A DNA stretch of 6,869 nt from a virus. Both the position numbers and the translations under genes were made by a program. The notes under the pieces are model-generated. The model did no database searches, was not told the origin of the DNA, and saw only the letters and a list, made by a program, of their open reading frames with translations. The DNA is taken from IMG/VR virus record IMGVR_UViG_3300028591_002019, positions 1 to 6,869 of that record. One strand, 5' to 3'. Shown here piece by piece: positions 1-6,869 of this stretch. Numbering within the stretch: the stretch's first letter is position 1; the number at the start of each line of letters is the position of its first letter.

Positions 1-213
1 ATCAAGAATTTCTTTTTCTCCTTTATATTTACTAAAAATATCAATTGTGATGGTAATTGCGTCCGTGCGGGTATCAAAAGCATCTGCTCTATTATGTCCG
101 CTTAAACGAGCCATCAGCCAAGGAAAATTCTCTACATAAGCCCCGTTATCAGTAATATTATAGCCTAATCCTCTAACCAGGCTACATAAATCAGTTTTTA
201 TTTTCTAAACCAT
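1..213 (-). CDS. Tail-completion / neck protein, DUF3168-like (N-terminal 71 codons; C-terminus lies beyond the window start). Carries an in-frame TAG at codon 3.
   Basis: ATG at 211..213 is preceded by SD GGAGGA (219..224) with a 5-nt spacer. The frame is open down to base 1 except for TAG at 205..207. Translation: MV[TAG]KIKTDLCSLVRGLGYNITDNGAYVENFPWLMARLSGHNRADAFDTRTDAITITIDIFSKYKGEKEILD. From memory, the pattern and the position after a gp10-like gene fit DUF3168/SPP1 gp17-type tail-completion proteins. The start overlaps the preceding ORF by 23 nt. Confidence 0.6.
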
Positions 214-367
214 AAGGGTCCTCCACTAATACATAATTATCTATATTATCAAAACGAGAAAGATACAAATACTTTGCGTATAAGTGTTCTCCTTCTTTTG
301 GAGTAGCATAATCATAAACAAACCCATTTGGGGCAATATAGGTTGTCATTTTTTTATTTAAAGCCAT
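191..367 (-). CDS. Hypothetical small protein, 58 aa
   Basis: ATG at 365..367 is preceded by SD GGAGG (375..379) with a 7-nt spacer. The stop is TGA at 191..193. Translation: MALNKKMTTYIAPNGFVYDYATPKEGEHLYAKYLYLSRFDNIDNYVLVEDPYGLENKN. It is below the length cutoff of the ORF track. I recognise no family. Confidence 0.5.
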   Translation of the reverse strand: MALNKKMTTYIAPNGFVYDYATPKEGEHLYAKYLYLSRFDNIDNYVLVEDPYGLENKN

Positions 368-380
368 TATACAACCTCCA

Positions 381-986
381 TTATGTTATTATAACCTAAA
401 TAGAATTACCGCCACCATAATCTCCTGAATAATTTGGAGTAGTATTAATATTAAACAAAGTATCAAAAATGCCATACAACATTACTAAAAGAGGAAATAA
501 TACCAAAAGGGCTAACATTCCTGCTGTCATTCCCAACAAGTCTTCCATAAATCCCCCTTCTTCACCTCCACCCAACGCTAATTGGGCTTCCGCAATAATT
601 GTTTCGCACATTTCTTCTAAAATTTCCTATGCTTCATTTACTGCTTCCTATGCTTCATCTATGAAGGCTTCCAGCCCTTCATTTAGGGCTGGTTCAAAAT
701 AAGGCTACGCAATCATCTTCCAAGTCCCATATTCAACATATTGCGCGTATTCTGCGGTAGCCTCTGCTTCACATTGAAATCCATCATTATCGGCCGAAAT
801 GGTGCTTTGTAAATATCCTGTATCTACTGGAACAAGAGAAGTGGCTATATCTTCAAAAACTTCGCAGAAAGCGTCGCACGCAGAAGAATAATCTACTTCT
901 ACTTCTGCGTGCTCGCCCATTACATCTGCGTCAAGATAAGTAGGTAATCCTAAATCACTTGGGGTGAATGAAACATATAGTCCCAT
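381..986 (-). CDS. HK97-gp10-family neck/tail-component protein with a hydrophobic C-terminal extension, 201 aa when four in-frame TAGs are read through
   Basis: ATG at 984..986 is preceded by AAGAGGTGA and a 6-nt spacer. Track ORFs 705..986 and 396..611 lie in the same frame and are joined by TAG codons at 705..707, 648..650 and 627..629. A fourth TAG at 396..398 is followed five codons later by TAA at 381..383. The motifs VPVDTGYLQSTI and YAQYVEYGTWKMIA[TAG]PYFEPAL match the HK97 gp10-like family signature as I recall it (vPvdTG.L..si ... YA.yVEfGT.kM.AQPf..PA). The C-terminal part contains one TM-like stretch, LLGMTAGMLALLVLFPLLVMLYGIF. Confidence 0.75.
624..658 (-). repeat. 14-nt direct repeat at 21-nt spacing (ttcctatgcttcat at 624..637 and 645..658); each copy carries an in-frame TAG
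   Basis: The two copies are exact matches read directly from the sequence. On the coding strand each copy reads ATGAAGCATAGGAA, so both encode the in-frame core EA[TAG]E (copy at 624..637 within NEA[TAG]EI, copy at 645..658 within DEA[TAG]EA). Confidence 0.7.
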
Positions 987-992
987 AGGATT

Positions 993-1223
993 TCACCTCT
1001 TTATTTCTTTTTTTAAATCATCTAAATCATTTTGTAATAAACTGGTTTGTTTTTCCAATTCAAAAGTGCGCTCAATTACTTGGTTATGTAAATTAACCTT
1101 TTTTTCTAACTGTTCTAATCTATATGCTATTAGTGCTTGATTTTTGTTATTAGAAAGAAAATTGCCAATTAATGAACCTATAAAGGTTATAATTGCTACA
1201 ATAATTGTTTCTGTTATCGCCAT
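993..1223 (-). CDS. Small membrane-anchored coiled-coil protein, 76 aa (BhlA/XhlA-like architecture; function uncertain)
   Basis: The preferred start is ATG 1221..1223 (MAITET...), preceded by GAGGT about 9 nt upstream. The track start at 1241 has no SD and overlaps the previous gene. The stop is TGA at 993..995. The N-terminal hydrophobic helix is TIIVAIITFIGSLIGNFL. It is followed by a charged heptad-like region, LEQLEKKVNLHNQVIERTFELEKQTSLLQNDLDDLKKEIKR. Confidence 0.65.
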   Translation of the reverse strand: MAITETIIVAIITFIGSLIGNFLSNNKNQALIAYRLEQLEKKVNLHNQVIERTFELEKQTSLLQNDLDDLKKEIKR

Positions 1224-1230
1224 ATCTTTA

Positions 1231-1767
1231 TTACCTCGCATTAAAACAATTTACATAATAACCAGCGGGGTCCAAAGATGTCCCCGTATTAGGCCCAATT
1301 ATATACCCACTAACATCACTTGTTAAAACAACAGAAAATTTTCCTGCGTCTTTTTTTGTAATACTAACAGTAATAGCAGGAGCATCAGAACTATTGCCGC
1401 CACGCTTTACCGTAGTAGTTCCATTGTCATAGGTAACAAAATAATATTTTATACTGCTGCTATTAGAAGGAATAGAAGTCAAGCAAGACATAAAAGTTAA
1501 ATAAAACTTTTCGGTAGGAGCATTATTAAGTGTCAAAGTAAGTGTTCTATTAATTTGTTTATAAATATAACCACCAGAAGCACCAACACCAGTGCCTCCA
1601 TAGCCCCAACCAGTCCAATAAGTATCTCTTTCAGTTCCTCCAACTGAAATACTATCTACCGCAGTAGCCATTTCTGCTACAGTCATTGTTCCACTTCCGC
1701 CGGTCTTTGTGCGGATAGCATTACCAAGAGCAGTTAAATCAGCAGTGTTTTCTAAACTATACGCCAT
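1231..1767 (-). CDS. Fibre-associated / putative distal receptor-binding protein, 178 aa
   Basis: ATG at 1765..1767 overlaps the upstream TAA (TAATG junction) and is preceded by AGGGGGGAG. The stop is TAA at 1231..1233. The track start at 1800 is a TTG lying inside the upstream fibre gene. The N-terminal motif LTALGNAIRTKTGGSGTMTVAEMATAV is one I recall from fibre-module proteins of Firmicutes phages. The remainder is Gly/Thr/Ser-rich and looks beta-type. Confidence 0.75.
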   Translation of the reverse strand: MAYSLENTADLTALGNAIRTKTGGSGTMTVAEMATAVDSISVGGTERDTYWTGWGYGGTGVGASGGYIYKQINRTLTLTLNNAPTEKFYLTFMSCLTSIPSNSSSIKYYFVTYDNGTTTVKRGGNSSDAPAITVSITKKDAGKFSVVLTSDVSGYIIGPNTGTSLDPAGYYVNCFNAR

Positions 1768-3347
1768 TAATAACTCCCCCCTACTGTAATTTCTTCCCAA
1801 GTGTAAGTAGCGTTATTTACGCCTTTAACACATTTTAGCATATAAGTGCCCGCAGTTTCAGGAGCAGCGGGTAATCCTGTAAGAGTAGAACTAATTTCAT
1901 TATTGGCATCAATATTAATACCTGCGCCCGCAGTATAAGTTGCGCCTCCGCCAGAGCCACTAATAACTCCATTGCTATCAATAGTAATCGTGCTACCATC
2001 TACCTTAACTCCGCCAAGAGTTGAAGTAGAAGCAACTGGAAGTTTATCTGGGGTTAAAATTGAACTATATTGAATTTGTCCTCGGGTTTGTGTGCCGTCT
2101 TCTTCTTCGTGGAAATAACGGATACTATTGCTGGAAAATTCAACCTAATCTCCCATATAATCTTCAAATAAGGGGTCTTCGCTCTCTTCCTCTTCGGTAG
2201 AAATCTGTCTTGTCTTATATTCTGTTAGTTGTAATCCATAAGTAGATAAAGTTGTATTACTGGGAGGACTTATAAAATTTTCAATAGTAATACCCTGACT
2301 TGAACTTATAGATACCTAATCAGCCTTATTATCTGGGTCTTCTGGATGAGTAGTATCAAATCCAAATAATTCTAAACTTCCTGCGGATAAAGAAGTGCCC
2401 GTTACTTCTGCGCCACTTTCAAACAAATCAATTGTTAAACTACCATCAGTAAGCATTGTTTGTCCCTATAACTAAAAAGTTTCTGGCATAGAAGAAGTAA
2501 GAGTAATACTATCAGGCTCTAAACCAGTATGGAGTGTTTCAGTATCAAAATTAACTCCACTACTTGCGACACTAATTTCATTATTCTAATCAATAGTAAT
2601 TCCACTACCAGCGGTATAGGTTGCTCCCCCAGAGGGAAGATTAGCCAAAGCAGTATCTACATAGTTTTCAGTAGCAACCTTACTACCTCCTGCGTTAGCA
2701 GTCGTTAAGCCATTTGCGTCGGTGCTATAACTATTACATCCTACATATAAATTACCGCGTAAATATTCATTACCATCCCAGTCTCTTGTAAAAATATTTT
2801 TACGCTAATTCGCCGCCGTGCCATTACCTACAATGTTCTAAAAAATCATATTGCTATCAATCTCATTACAAAATCCTTCTGCGTGCTAATACGCACTTTT
2901 TGCTACGGTTTTATAACCTTCGGCGTGAGAATAATTTCCTTCGGCATCTCCTGAACCCTCTGCGTGTGAATATTGTCCGTCTGCCGTAGAATTATTTGAA
3001 GCAAAAGAAAACATACCAATCGCACGGCCCTAATTAGTTCCTACTGCGTAATTTCCAATGTTAGATAAATTAAAATCAGTTGCGTAACCTAACATTACTG
3101 ATTTAGTGCCTGCGCCGGCTAACACTCTATCATTTAAATCCCAAGAAACAGTTCTATTATTTTCAGTTAATCCATTAGTAAAAGTATAAGAAGCATTGCT
3201 ACTTAATATACCATCATTATCAACTGTAATTGTTGAGTTATCAGGTTTTACTAAACCAAGAGTTGAAGAGGTAGCCTTGCCAGGAAGGCTACCTTTAATT
3301 AACTCAACTAATTTAGTAAGCCCGACATTATCTAAAAATTTTGCCAT
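1767..3347 (-). CDS. Large tail/neck fibre protein, 526 aa, containing nine in-frame TAG codons
   Basis: ATG at 3345..3347 is preceded by SD GGAGG (3357..3361). I translated the single frame by hand through to TAA at 1767..1769. It has no TAA or TGA in 527 codons. In-frame TAGs are at 3030, 2886, 2838, 2805, 2586, 2472, 2466, 2316 and 2145 (first base of the plus-strand cta). Fibre motifs occur on both sides of the TAGs: LGLVKPDNSTITVDNDGILS; YSHAEG-type repeats; NIVGNGTAAN[TAG]RKNIFTRDWDGNEYLRGNLYVG; GGATYTAGSGITID[TAG]NNEISV and GGGATYTAGAGINIDANNEISS; LGGVKVDGSTITIDSNGVISG; and the C-terminal PAAPETAGTYMLKCVKGVNNATYTWEEI. Confidence 0.85.
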
Positions 3348-3361
3348 ATGGGCTTACCTCC

Positions 3362-4060
3362 TTAAACAGCGCTTGCGTCATTCCAAATTGATGCGACTTC
3401 ACTATTGCTTAACGCAGAAATTGACATTTCTGTATCGCCAATAATCTCCCAAGCGTTATTTACATAAACATATTCAGTATAAACCTAATTAGTTCCTGTG
3501 GTTGCTTTTTCAACTAAATAAATCTTTGAAGAATTACCAGTTTGAGGCAATTCTCTAACAACCTCAAAACTGAATGAACTAATACCACTTAATGCGGTAG
3601 TAATATCTGCCATTGTAGCCACTTTATTACTGGAAGCATCATAAGCAGTATTAAATACTAATGCGTCTTGCTTACCAGCAATAGAAGGATTAATATAATC
3701 ATCAAAATATGTGTCTAAACCTATCGTTTCTCCAGGTTCAGCACTTGGAGATGGGTCGCCTAATTGTATTGACCAGAGTGGGACATACTCAACCCTTAAA
3801 TGGGGAGTAGTTCCCTCTTCACCATAGAAAATAATAGTGGTGTCATCCACAGGGATTTCGCTCCAATCAACAGTAGGGATATCAGCCATTGTTGCTACTT
3901 TATTAGTGCTTGCGTTATATGCGGTATTAAACACTAATGCGTCTTGTTTATCTCTTACATCAGAGGCGTTCGCTTTTTCTGCTAACGCAGTTTTTATAAG
4001 CCCACTATAATATAATAATTGTTCTCCGGTTAAAACTTTACTATAATCTAATTGTGCCAT
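3362..4060 (-). CDS. Fibre protein, 232 aa, with one in-frame TAG at codon 192
   Basis: ATG at 4058..4060 is preceded by SD AAGGAG (4071..4076). Track ORF 3485..4060 ends at TAG 3485..3487. The same frame continues for 40 more codons to TAA at 3362..3364, which sits just upstream of the SD of the next gene. The readthrough sequence is KIYLVEKATTGTN[TAG]VYTEYVYVNNAWEIIGDTEMSISALSNSEVASIWNDASAV. It contains an internal duplicated module, KQDALVFNTAY.AS.NKVATMADI. Confidence 0.85.
3602..3673 (-). repeat. Copy 2 of the diverged 72-nt intragenic repeat encoding KQDALVFNTAYDASSNKVATMADI
   Basis: It matches 3878..3949 at 22 of 24 amino acids, 276 nt apart in the same frame. This looks like module duplication within a fibre shaft. 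Confidence 0.8.
3878..3949 (-). repeat. Copy 1 of the diverged 72-nt intragenic repeat encoding KQDALVFNTAYNASTNKVATMADI
   Basis: See the partner copy at 3602..3673. Confidence 0.8.
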
Positions 4061-4080
4061 ATATTAAAATCTCCTTTTAT

Positions 4081-4485
4081 TTAAGAATTCCAAATAGCGA
4101 GAATATCACTATTTGTTAGATATTGAATATTAGATGAAATCGTTGAACCAACTAAACTAATCCCGTTTCCCGCAGTTAAAGTTTCTTGCTTTTCAGCCAA
4201 TCCTTCATCTACATATTCAATTGTGGCATATTCGCTTAAATCAATATCTCCCGCGCTAATATTCGTCGCAATCTCTTTAATATCTTCGGGAGTAAAATAA
4301 TCTACTCCTTTTTCAGGAGTTTTTCCTTTTAAAGAAGCCAACCATTCAGCCTGCGTTCCAGAGAAGCCATTATCAACAGCAATCTCATAAGCGGTTTTAC
4401 CGGCGGGACCACGGTAAGTAATATTACCTAATGAGAGTTGAACTTCTACGGGATTAATAGCATTTAAAACTTCAATACTTGCCAT
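4081..4485 (-). CDS. Fibre protein, 134 aa
   Basis: ATG at 4483..4485 overlaps the upstream TAA (TAATG junction) and is preceded by GGGGGGAG. The stop is TAA at 4081..4083. It contains GPAGKTAYEIAVDNGFSGTQAEWLASLKG, a motif I recall as very common in phage tail-fibre proteins (sAYEiAv.nGF.Gte.eWL.SLkG). Its C-terminus LTNSDILAIWNS resembles the C-terminus of the next fibre gene. Confidence 0.85.
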   Translation of the reverse strand: MASIEVLNAINPVEVQLSLGNITYRGPAGKTAYEIAVDNGFSGTQAEWLASLKGKTPEKGVDYFTPEDIKEIATNISAGDIDLSEYATIEYVDEGLAEKQETLTAGNGISLVGSTISSNIQYLTNSDILAIWNS

Positions 4486-4814
4486 TAGAATTTCACTCCC
4501 CCCAGAACTTTAAATTTCGCAGGACCTAATACAGTATCTACTCGGCCATCTGCCGTATCAACTTCTACATCATAATAATAATTTCCAACGGGAATATTAG
4601 TATCATTTGTAGTAAGTCTAATGACAGCCTTATTATTTACAAATTCATTAATAACCTTTTGGATACGAGGATTTGTTTTCTCTAATTCATCATTAACAGT
4701 AAAATAAACAGTATCTCCTTCGTCCAATAGGTAATCATCAAAAGAAATAACAAAATCTCCTGTGTCCTTCGCGATAATAGAAATTATTTGAGTGTCGTTA
4801 TCAAATGTTATCAT
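4485..4814 (-). CDS. Beta-rich structural protein, 109 aa (possible Ig-like/BppU_N-like fibre anchor; tentative)
   Basis: ATG at 4812..4814 is preceded by SD GAGGAGG. The stop is TAA at 4485..4487. The pattern GNYYYDVEVDTADGRVDTVLGPAKFKV resembles Ig-like decoration or baseplate-upper-protein N-domains. The function call is weak. Confidence 0.75.
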   Translation of the reverse strand: MITFDNDTQIISIIAKDTGDFVISFDDYLLDEGDTVYFTVNDELEKTNPRIQKVINEFVNNKAVIRLTTNDTNIPVGNYYYDVEVDTADGRVDTVLGPAKFKVLGGVKF

Positions 4815-5130
4815 TTAATTCAACCTCCTCAACAACCTCCATTAAAACGCTGAACCATTCCCTGCCTCTCTTTACCTGGGTCATAAGTTTATATACATCG
4901 CCATTAAAGATGTAGCGGGTATTCACATATTCATCTAATTTAATATCAGTAATAACATTAATTAATTTTTGAGTTGTAACGCCAAATTGCGTAATTTGTT
5001 CGCCCGTTGCGGTAATAGAGCAATGGGCCTTTATTTTTTCGTGAGGTTCTACTTGAACGCCAGAAGAACCTCCTTGTGTATCATCGGTAGGGATGACACG
5101 AATACGCTAAATTAAATCTCGTTTAATCAT
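4801..5130 (-). CDS. Head-closure / head-tail adaptor protein (Phage_H_T_join, SPP1 gp16-like), 109 aa, with an in-frame TAG at codon 8
   Basis: This gene is absent from the ORF track. ATG at 5128..5130 overlaps the upstream TGA (ATGA junction). TAG is at 5107..5109, and the frame then stays open to TGA at 4801..4803. Translation: MIKRDLI[TAG]RIRVIPTDDTQGGSSGVQVEPHEKIKAHCSITATGEQITQFGVTTQKLINVITDIKLDEYVNTRYIFNGDVYKLMTQVKRGREWFSVLMEVVEEVELNDNI. The pattern (RI.vI, DD..GG, a.i.p.sG.E, RI.fnG..Y.i) and the position after the gp6-like gene fit the family. No ATG downstream of the TAG could give a comparable product. Confidence 0.8.
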
Positions 5131-5420
5131 ATCATCTTCACCTTTCTATTCTTATTTAACATCCATCTAACTCTATCGCTGTAAAAACTATCATAAGTCA
5201 TTGAAACGCCAGAAGAAGATTGCTGTGTAGTGCCTTCACTCCCAATGCGGTTGTAGCGCTCAACCACCATACTGATAACCACAGCATCTAACTTTTTATC
5301 GTATTCAGGCAAATTACAATAAGTGTAAGCCTCTTCTTTACACAGAGAAATCAATGTATATAATAATTCATCTTCGGTGTCGTCTTGAATGTTTAGCAAA
5401 AGTTTTAATTTATTTAACAT
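5127..5420 (-). CDS. Head-tail connector protein (gp6-like, DNA-packaging/connector family), 97 aa
   Basis: ATG at 5418..5420 is preceded by SD AAGGAGAG (5426..5433). The stop is TGA at 5127..5129. The N-terminal pattern LKLLLNIQDDTEDELLYTLISLCKEEAYTYCN is typical of gp6-like connectors. The gene lies immediately downstream of the capsid gene. Confidence 0.8.
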   Translation of the reverse strand: MLNKLKLLLNIQDDTEDELLYTLISLCKEEAYTYCNLPEYDKKLDAVVISMVVERYNRIGSEGTTQQSSSGVSMTYDSFYSDRVRWMLNKNRKVKMI

Positions 5421-5437
5421 AATTTCTCTCCTTCGCT

Positions 5438-5478
5438 AAAAAAAATAAGGGCCTACCCACCGAAGTAGGCAGGCCCTT
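5438..5478 (-). terminator. Rho-independent terminator downstream of the major capsid gene
   Basis: The minus-strand RNA would be AAGGGCCUGCCUAC-UUCG-GUGGGUAGGCCCUU followed by A-UUUUUUUU. The stem arms are 5449..5460 and 5465..5476, extendable by two A-U pairs. The stem is 12 bp including two G-U wobbles, with a UUCG tetraloop. The wobbles would be C-A mismatches on the plus-strand transcript, so the hairpin is oriented for the minus strand. Confidence 0.8.
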
Positions 5479-5498
5479 TTATATTAAAACATTATCAA

Positions 5499-6299
5499 TT
5501 AGGGAGTTTCAGGCTCGTCGTCTTCAAGCATCTTAACAACACGGGTAGCGTCGGTAAGAGCAACAAGCATAACTTTACGAGCATAAACGGTATTCTTTCT
5601 ATGGTCGGCGTCTCTCTCTTGCTCGGTTTCTGCGCCTTTCTTTGTAAAGATAGTAACAGCCTCTTTGGTAGCAAGATAAGCAGTGCCCTTTGGAACAGCC
5701 TTACTTACATAAACAGGAACACCGCAAATGGAGCCAATATAACCAGTGCGTGCGAAATCTTCAACATACTTTAAGTCGTCGGCAAGTGCCTTACGAATAG
5801 TAGCCTTGATTTCAGGATTAATAAGAATGAATAAGCCCTTCTCGTCCTCATAAGGATACATAGCAATAGCATCAACGAAATCGCTGAAAGTCCAATCAAC
5901 GCCATATTTAACAATAGAAGCGCTATTCATTTCAGCAACAACCTTTTCAGTAAGGTCATTAGTCATACGCTGTGCTAAACCAGCAAGACCAGCATCAACA
6001 ACCATTGGGTCAGTCATTTCTTGCTCGTCGTAGTAAGCAAAACGACCCTGGGTAACACCAACTTCATAATCTTTATCACTGAAAGAAACAAGGATTTCAT
6101 CGGTATTACCTTCGCCCATTTTAAGGTCTTCTACATCGCCAGTAGAAGTATAAGTGTGGATAACCTTCTTCATACCAGGGTTCTCAACGAGGCTATCGTC
6201 GTGAGTAGCAAACTGGCTCATATCAAGATTAGTAATAAGTAAATCTTCAAGTTTGTTTTCTAAAACAAAATTTTCATAAATAGTATGATTTTGTGCCAT
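5499..6299 (-). CDS. Major capsid protein (HK97-fold, short approx. 270-aa type), 266 aa, with no in-frame TAG
   Basis: ATG at 6297..6299 is preceded by SD AAGGAG (6310..6315). The stop is TAA at 5499..5501. The gene lies between the scaffold and connector genes and is followed by a strong terminator. Size and sequence character fit small HK97-like capsid proteins; the family assignment is from memory only. Confidence 0.85.
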   Translation of the reverse strand: MAQNHTIYENFVLENKLEDLLITNLDMSQFATHDDSLVENPGMKKVIHTYTSTGDVEDLKMGEGNTDEILVSFSDKDYEVGVTQGRFAYYDEQEMTDPMVVDAGLAGLAQRMTNDLTEKVVAEMNSASIVKYGVDWTFSDFVDAIAMYPYEDEKGLFILINPEIKATIRKALADDLKYVEDFARTGYIGSICGVPVYVSKAVPKGTAYLATKEAVTIFTKKGAETEQERDADHRKNTVYARKVMLVALTDATRVVKMLEDDEPETP

Positions 6300-6328
6300 A
6301 ATAGCATTTCTCCTTTATAATAAAATTT

Positions 6329-6869
6329 TTAATTGTGAGAGAGTTGCTTATATAGTTCAGGATTAGTTCTATAAATTTCTGCCTGCTGTTGGATATTCAA
6401 CTTTTTAAACTCCTCACGCGTTAGGCCGGTTTGTCTTGCTGACCCGGTCTTGGGAGCAGGAGACGCAATGCGTTTTGCCACGGCATCTGCCACGGCTCCG
6501 TTAAACATCTTCTCAAAAGTGTTAATATTATTCATCATAGTTTCAGCGTCTTCTGCGACAATATAATCAATAAATTCAACGGGTAAATTACGATTTGATA
6601 AAACCTTCATCGCTTCAATTTTATTTTGAGCGATAGCGAAATCTCTTTCCCTCTATTCAAGTTCTTGTAATTTCTGCGTATATTCGTATTCTTTACGCTG
6701 GCTTTCGTCCATATTCCGCAGTTTCTCGGCTTCTGCCATTTTGTTCTCTAAATCTTTTTCCCATTTCTTCTACGCACTACTAACTCTGCGGTCGCCCTCT
6801 TTTTGAAGTAAGGCCTGGACTTCTTCTTCCGTATAAGTTTTCGGTGCGTTATCCCCTGTGGTTTCCACA
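6329..6869 (-). CDS. Capsid scaffolding protein (DUF4355-like), C-terminal 180 codons; the N-terminus lies beyond the window end. Carries two in-frame TAGs.
   Basis: Track ORF 6329..6610 extends upstream in the same frame to the window edge, with only TAG codons at 6653..6655 and 6770..6772 and no TAA or TGA. Translation: ...KTYTEEEVQALLQKEGDRRVSSA[TAG]KKWEKDLENKMAEAEKLRNMDESQRKEYEYTQKLQELE[TAG]RERDFAIAQNKIEAMKVLSNRNLP... It is a charged coiled-coil region typical of DUF4355 scaffolds (TqEevn.iv..RlaRe.kKwe). The stop is TAA at 6329..6331. Confidence 0.85.

Follow-up and report, generated by a model that had tools for sequence, protein, structure and literature searches.

Gut and rumen phages in which the amber codon TAG is recoded from stop to glutamine (Gln) have been described, and their recoding was hypothesised to regulate late, lytic genes (Borges et al., bioRxiv 10.1101/2021.08.26.457843; statements on this work refer throughout to the portion of it drawn on here). 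The reassignment of TAG to Gln was proved by proteomics (Peters et al., PMC9523058), and in-frame TAG codons of structural genes were directly observed, in a time series, to be gained and lost rapidly by synonymous change (bioRxiv 10.1101/2023.08.07.552389). The described TAG-recoded prophages include 'Topaz' of 23.7 kb (Oscillospiraceae) and 'Garnet' of 24.4 kb (Prevotella), both of which have a TAG-free integrase (Borges et al., bioRxiv 10.1101/2021.08.26.457843). We analysed a contig of 6,869 bases (IMG/VR virus record IMGVR_UViG_3300028591_002019, positions 1 to 6,869), the whole of which is called the window below and which is a fragment of a larger phage genome. All genes of the window lie on the minus strand and form a virion module when TAG is taken as sense. 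Two of its neck genes, a gp17-like tail-terminator gene and a head-closure gene, carry a TAG at codon 3 and codon 8, respectively, and a preliminary description of the sequence had proposed that TAGs placed so early act as translational gates. Most probably, both are ordinary Gln codons of a code-15 phage which lie close to the start codons by coincidence and not by selection.

Of the 2,254 codons of the window, 18 are in-frame TAGs, and reading through TAG raises the coverage by open reading frames (ORFs) from 0.63 to 0.96. All 12 complete genes of the window end in TAA (eight) or TGA (four) and none in TAG, although this is a weak test of TAG not being a terminator, since the ORFs in the relatives were defined by TAA and TGA. 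At positions with conserved flanks in eight recoded genomes, the residue opposite TAG was Gln in 119 cases, another TAG in 70, Glu in 34 and Lys in 28. Gln is thus the commonest counterpart, and TAG means Gln in the window phage as it does in the published code-15 phages. Scanning IMG/VR with the capsid protein yielded 80 related loci, about ten of which are clearly TAG-recoded, the remainder using the standard code, and a metagenome scan for closer relatives returned only the contigs L001 and L002 plus one fragment. Five whole relatives were retrieved, four of them with terminal repeats and rated 100% complete (23.7–26.1 kb). No match was obtained when the whole window was compared with the INPHARED phages by megablast.

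In-frame TAG in structural genes, TAG aligned with Gln, TAG not serving as a terminator, low GC content and a TAG-free integrase are common to the code-15 gut and rumen phages, as far as reported by Borges et al., and to the family of the window phage. The window phage belongs to this already published class of TAG-to-Gln recoded phages, and the finding reduces to another member of it. Its contig is a fragment of the genome, about 25 kb long, of a probably temperate code-15 phage. Similar size (23.7–26 kb in the complete relatives), the recoding of almost all genes and a TAG-free tyrosine integrase, present in the relative G001, link the family to Topaz and Garnet as far as these were described. 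Strong Shine-Dalgarno sequences and the occurrence of standard-code relatives in Clostridia-type metagenome-assembled genomes (MAGs) were also counted as likeness, and it is size, code and integrase only that carry the comparison. In contrast, an ORF of about 3,000 codons is present in most relatives of the window phage, whereas the portion of the report on Topaz and Garnet drawn on here makes no mention of one.

Both early TAGs were confirmed at the codons given in the preliminary description. The plus strand reads cta at 205-207 and cat at 211-213 for the gp17-like gene, and cta at 5107-5109 and cat at 5128-5130 for the head-closure gene. The two genes and the elements at their starts are the following:

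1..213, minus strand: probable gp17-like tail-terminator or tail-completion gene (PF11367, formerly DUF3168), of which the 5' 71 codons are present and which continues beyond the window
205..207, minus strand: in-frame TAG, codon 3 of the gp17-like gene (ATG GTT TAG; ATG at 213..211), from sequence and codon numbering
220..224, minus strand: Shine-Dalgarno sequence GGAGG of the gp17-like gene, 6 nucleotides (nt) 5' of the ATG 213..211, an arrangement identical in L001 and L002
4801..5130, minus strand: predicted head-closure (stopper) gene, 109 amino acids (aa), SPP1 gp16-like fold, single in-frame TAG (AlphaFold and Foldseek, synteny)
5107..5109, minus strand: in-frame TAG, codon 8 of the head-closure gene (ATG at 5130..5128), from sequence and codon numbering
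5127..5130, minus strand: ATGA, in which the stop codon of the gp6-like adaptor gene overlaps the head-closure start, typical of translational coupling
5138..5145, minus strand: Shine-Dalgarno sequence AAAGGTGA of the head-closure gene

Two early TAGs in the 13 genes of the window are within chance. Codons 2-8 of these genes include four Gln-type codons, two of them TAG, and the probability that at least two genes carry a TAG in codons 2-8 was 0.25 with TAG shuffled over the 74 Gln-type codons, and 0.16 with a uniform distribution of TAG over all codons. The preliminary description had called for a survey of TAG enrichment near 5' ends. Such a survey of 193 genes from eight recoded genomes (our own simple gene caller, TAG as sense) pointed in the opposite direction: the TAG density was 0.30% in codons 2-8 and 0.93% elsewhere (odds ratio 0.32, p = 0.012), with 0.44% in codons 9-15. 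Among starts with a ribosome-binding site, one TAG was found in 1,092 codons at positions 2-8, compared with 364 in 40,139 codons (0.91%) later (p = 0.0014), and this sole early TAG is that of the head-closure gene of the window. Expressed as a share of the Gln-type codons, TAG made up 12.8% in codons 2-15 and 24.4% later (p = 0.02). The CAG/CAA ratio was the same in early and later codons, so that the 5' depletion of TAG is not a matter of base composition, and wrongly called starts would weaken or invert the depletion rather than produce it. A replicate set of weakly recoded loci (3 vs 55 TAGs) held too few TAGs for the depletion to be tested. Enrichment of TAG at 5' ends was seen neither in the eight family genomes nor in the replicate loci nor in an unrelated recoded prophage. 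What can be stated robustly is that 5' ends are not enriched in TAG; their depletion is a modest effect at the level of the family.

The TAG share also deviates at the genes' opposite end. It rises from 0.13 in codons 2-15 to about 0.24 in the gene body and to 0.36 over the final 15 codons, where TAG is over-used (36% vs 23% of the Gln-type codons, p = 0.004). This 3' excess may represent former TAG stops, with translation now continuing past them as far as the following TAA or TGA; one example is the gp10-like gene of the window, with a TAG (396-398) four codons before its TAA.

The two positions were then compared in the orthologues. At codon 3 of the gp17-like gene, L001 has CAG and L002 has CAA; at codon 8 of the head-closure gene, both have CAA and L027 has CAG, with a Thr codon (ACA or ACT) in the more distant L004, L005 and L025. 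L001, L002 and L027 are themselves TAG-recoded, and TAG is therefore usable by them at these positions. A TAG in the first 10 codons was found in none of the five other head-closure orthologues and none of the six other gp17-like orthologues. The head-closure orthologues carry TAG at codons 44/53, at codon 54, at codon 29 or not at all, L001 and L027 having none, and the gp17-like orthologues carry it at codon 95 or lack it, as in L002. The residues encoded by the two early TAGs would be Q8 of the stopper, within the motif RDxLIQ, and Q3 of the tail terminator, within MxQKIKT, and a recent synonymous change of CAG or CAA is the most likely origin of the TAGs. The final 23 nt of the upstream gene orf58 (191-213) overlap the gp17-like start, and the codon-3 TAG also lies within a Leu and a Glu codon of orf58. 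The TAG/CAG difference at this position hence also alters an orf58 residue, which is Leu here and Thr in L001.

Some observations weigh against a coincidental placement. The nearest relatives are only 76–86% identical in both proteins and synonymous sites are saturated, so the non-conservation of one codon is weak evidence when taken alone. Measured against the depleted 5' rate of the family, two early TAGs in 13 genes are rather many; only three of about 180 genes of the relatives have an early TAG, all three with doubtful starts. The depletion itself was not reproduced in the unrelated recoded prophage (7/854 early vs 113/17,817 later), and some chance is left that the two early TAGs have a lineage-specific function.

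That the two genes start downstream of their TAGs or are broken, either as pseudogenes or by sequencing errors, is extremely improbable, the only point in favour being that each TAG is a bare stop codon under the standard code. The first canonical in-frame start after the TAG is codon 69 in the head-closure gene (GTG 4926, from which the longest product 3' of the TAG under the standard code would be 41 aa) and codon 34 in the gp17-like gene; the earlier assertion that no useful start follows the TAGs was thus borne out. The N-terminal residues around the TAG are conserved in both proteins from the same Shine-Dalgarno sequence and ATG in the relatives, including those with the standard code, which rules out the downstream initiation that had been considered as an alternative. 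Moreover, residue 8 of the head-closure protein belongs to the first beta strand in the modelled stopper fold, and the sixteen other in-frame TAGs of the window lie within intact, conserved genes. Owing to the very early TAGs, gene callers using the standard code miss both neck genes entirely. The preliminary description had held that the genes are essentially silent until amber decoding becomes available. Both indeed need TAG to be decoded and have no downstream start, whereas the silence itself is something that we infer: without amber decoding, translation would end after two residues of the gp17-like protein and after seven of the head-closure protein. A selected gate is nevertheless very improbable. 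According to this explanation, the early TAGs keep both neck proteins fully silent, with hardly any wasted peptide, until amber decoding sets in late in infection or upon induction, and codon position would then be a new layer of phage gene regulation. It is in keeping with the fact that neither gene is usable without TAG decoding and with the TAG-free integrase of G001, which fits the published model, and, with the head-closure start overlapping the preceding stop (ATGA), a stop so early in that gene could also weaken coupling to the downstream genes. However, the next gene, orf109, has its own Shine-Dalgarno sequence GAGGAGG, so that coupling is not obligatory, TAG is depleted and not enriched at 5' ends, and no orthologue shares an early TAG while some have no TAG whatsoever. 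Seven of the 13 late genes of the window, the major capsid gene among them, are free of TAG and hence ungated. Nor is a phage-encoded key for the proposed gate known, because no suppressor tRNA was found in the complete relatives. The logic of such a gate is the same as that of the conditional-lethal amber mutants of laboratory phages, in which a virion gene with an early TAG is productive only in the presence of a UAG-reading tRNA (supE-type suppressor hosts), but the TAGs of the window are natural, numerous, located at Gln positions and synonymous in the phage's own code. The choice of the first codons is likewise special in the 5' translational ramp of rare codons reportedly described by Tuller and co-workers in 2010, in which slow codons are said to be enriched at the 5' end, whereas in the window family TAG is depleted there.

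It is also very unlikely that the two TAGs are expression attenuators, i.e. that less efficient decoding of TAG than of CAA or CAG holds the neck proteins, which are low in copy number (12 and 6 per virion), at a smaller yield than capsid and scaffold. TAG is indeed strongly avoided in the most abundant proteins (TAG vs CAA/CAG: 1 vs 52 in eight major capsid orthologues, p = 1e-5; 5 vs 103 in the scaffold, p = 1e-7) and over-used in low-copy enzymes, namely the large terminase (41 vs 56) and the HNH homing endonuclease (19 vs 12), and A is slightly over-represented after TAG (0.38 vs 0.30, p = 0.018). The two families in question are not TAG-rich, though, with 5 vs 29 (0.15) in head closure and 1 vs 14 (0.07) in the gp17-like family compared with a family average of 0.24. 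Several of their orthologues lack TAG, so any such tuning is not conserved for these genes, and TAGs in other genes need not be adaptive for TAG to be avoided in highly expressed ones.

The pattern by position and by gene class suggests that TAG is still a costly codon after its reassignment; that it is avoided close to gene starts and in the most abundant proteins suggests slower, or leakier, decoding than for CAA and CAG. In E. coli, a slow codon early in a gene favours the loss of short peptidyl-tRNAs, as is known from work on minigenes and peptidyl-tRNA drop-off. A TAG within the first few codons might act likewise, and early TAGs would then be mildly disfavoured. The two early TAGs make the product of each neck gene dependent on efficient amber decoding, as about 400 further TAGs across the eight recoded genomes do for theirs, and amber dependence is a property of the whole recoded genome, in line with the published model of late-gene regulation, and not of these two codons.

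The broader idea of the preliminary description, that recoding times the expression of late genes, fared better than the gate. The tyrosine integrase of G001 (PF00589, E = 2.5e-29) has no TAG in 312 codons, and this, together with the TAG-bearing virion genes, fits the published model, but nothing special attaches to early placement. Small genes of the HTH/RepL-like type are mostly TAG-poor, the window itself being without early genes. The published pattern holds, and it is one of the choice of TAG-bearing genes, not of the TAG position within a gene. As far as the two reports were drawn on, no effect of position within the gene was claimed (Borges et al., bioRxiv 10.1101/2021.08.26.457843; Peters et al., PMC9523058), whereas in the window family TAG is under-used at gene starts, in the capsid and in the scaffold. 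The integrase gene of G001 (19051-19989 of the oriented genome) lies on the opposite strand inside the structural module of this relative (L001/G001), between the orf82-like and gp10-like genes, and the matching place of the window (987-992) contains no gene.

The source of amber decoding was sought in the phage genomes. Neither Infernal, an Rfam E-value scan nor ARAGORN (default, intron and relaxed modes) found a tRNA in the four complete relatives bounded by direct terminal repeats, none was found in the window, whose genome is incomplete, and no tRNA(CUA) was found among the 80 related loci. Since a suppressor tRNA was detectable in only about 40% of the TAG-recoded genomes (Borges et al., bioRxiv 10.1101/2021.08.26.457843), its absence from this family is not exceptional. 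The lack of a detectable suppressor tRNA in complete genomes nevertheless makes it a sharper question by what means phages this small have their TAGs decoded. We regard it as unlikely that the small recoded phages of the family (about 25 kb) have no amber-decoding gene of their own and that their TAG-bearing virion genes, the two with early TAGs included, are translated only when a UAG-reading tRNA is supplied in trans, by the host or by a co-resident recoded prophage carrying a suppressor. If so, the TAGs would effectively be sensors for a helper or for a particular state of the host. In GTDB, the standard-code relatives occur in MAGs of Ruminococcaceae, Lachnospiraceae and Clostridia, whereas the recoded relatives are found on short free-standing MAG contigs, for which reason no reliable host can be assigned to them. 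All Infernal tRNA matches in three relative-bearing MAGs were screened for a suppressor tRNA supplied by the host, and this candidate was rejected, because the one tRNA(CUA) detected is encoded by another recoded prophage rather than by host DNA. The MAG in question (G006, titled Ca. Gastranaerophilaceae) contains L094, a relative of the window phage, as well as the apparently integrated TAG-recoded prophage of about 70 kb (contig C37, L194-L198, about 10–80 kb), which has 131 in-frame TAGs in 61 ORFs. Its tRNA(CUA) is located at 72869-72942 on the minus strand, and the prophage adjoins a tmRNA gene and host tRNAs. The binning of this MAG is unverified, and the co-occurrence of L094 and the prophage is a lead and not evidence.

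The gene labels used in the preliminary description, DUF3168-like and head closure, appear to be sound. The 71-aa fragment of the gp17-like protein scored below the cut-off of PF11367 (15 bits, E = 0.028; cut-off 24.5), whereas the full-length orthologue in L001, 86% identical, passed it as Tail_completion_gp17 with 25.8 bits, and the orthologue in L002 matched phrog_176 'tail terminator' (1.4e-10). The head-closure protein had no match in Pfam or PHROG even at E = 10, and its profile gave chance matches only, e.g. to EspP and TIGIT, among the sequences of the PDB, so that a fold search was needed for its identification. The AlphaFold model, built from a 17-sequence alignment (predicted local distance difference test score 76.9), was matched by Foldseek to neck proteins of SaPI1 (9mu3_C, E = 3e-5), Pam3 (8hdr_A) and GTA (6tba), to the SPP1 gp6/gp15/gp16 connector (7z4w_1, E = 5.5e-4) and to GP16 (2kca), the range for the SaPI1, Pam3, GTA and SPP1 neck chains being E = 3e-5 to 5.5e-4 with TM scores of 0.58–0.63. 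The gene follows directly after the gp6-like adaptor gene. The modelled fold and the synteny identify the 109-aa protein as a predicted SPP1 gp16-like head-closure protein (stopper) with a small beta-barrel fold.

The remaining genes of the window, in their order along the minus strand, are as follows:

6329..6868, minus strand: scaffold gene (DUF4355, E = 4e-27), TAG at codons 33 and 72 (6770-6772 and 6653-6655)
5499..6299, minus strand: major capsid gene, 266 codons, no TAG (phrog_544)
5127..5420, minus strand: gp6-like head-tail adaptor gene (PF05135, E = 6.9e-16)
minus strand, between the head-closure gene and the fibre-like genes: two small genes, orf109 and orf134
3362..4060, minus strand: orf232, fibre-like, TAG at codon 192 (3485-3487)
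1767..3347, minus strand: fibre gene, 526 codons, nine in-frame TAGs (codons 106-401)
minus strand, 3' of the fibre genes in gene order: orf178 (178 aa) and orf82 (82 aa)
381..986, minus strand: HK97 gp10-like tail-completion gene, TAG at codons 94, 113, 120 and 197 (Pfam and PHROG matches)
191..367, minus strand: orf58, 58 aa, no TAG

The Pfam and PHROG alignments of the gp10-like protein extend across its TAG codons, and its codon 94 corresponds to Gln in five and to TAG in two of the relatives. The head-closure and gp10-like genes, which are normally neighbours in the neck modules of siphoviruses, are separated in the window by a fibre-like block of about 3.8 kb (993-4814) comprising orf109, orf134, orf232, the 526-aa fibre gene, orf178 and orf82. 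The order with the inserted fibre block is the same in the relatives.

Two suppositions about the use of the standard code in the family were rejected. The HNH endonuclease cannot be read as a standard-code gene, since its family is TAG-rich, and a run of TAG-terminated ORFs in G001, taken as a candidate standard-code early region, turned out to be all in one frame and to form a single giant recoded ORF wrapping the circular junction. Giant ORFs of 2,900–3,257 codons are present in G001, G002, G003 and G005, where they occupy about 35% of each 25-kb genome (e.g. L083/L084, G002 12617-21688). They contain 5–33 in-frame TAGs and no TAA or TGA, and are located between tail-chaperone-like genes and a Dit-like gene. 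The N-terminus of the encoded protein appears Dit-like, and its sole family match is an SH3_3 domain. The genomes with a giant ORF are without a tape-measure gene of normal length, and G004 has an 895-aa gene at that position.

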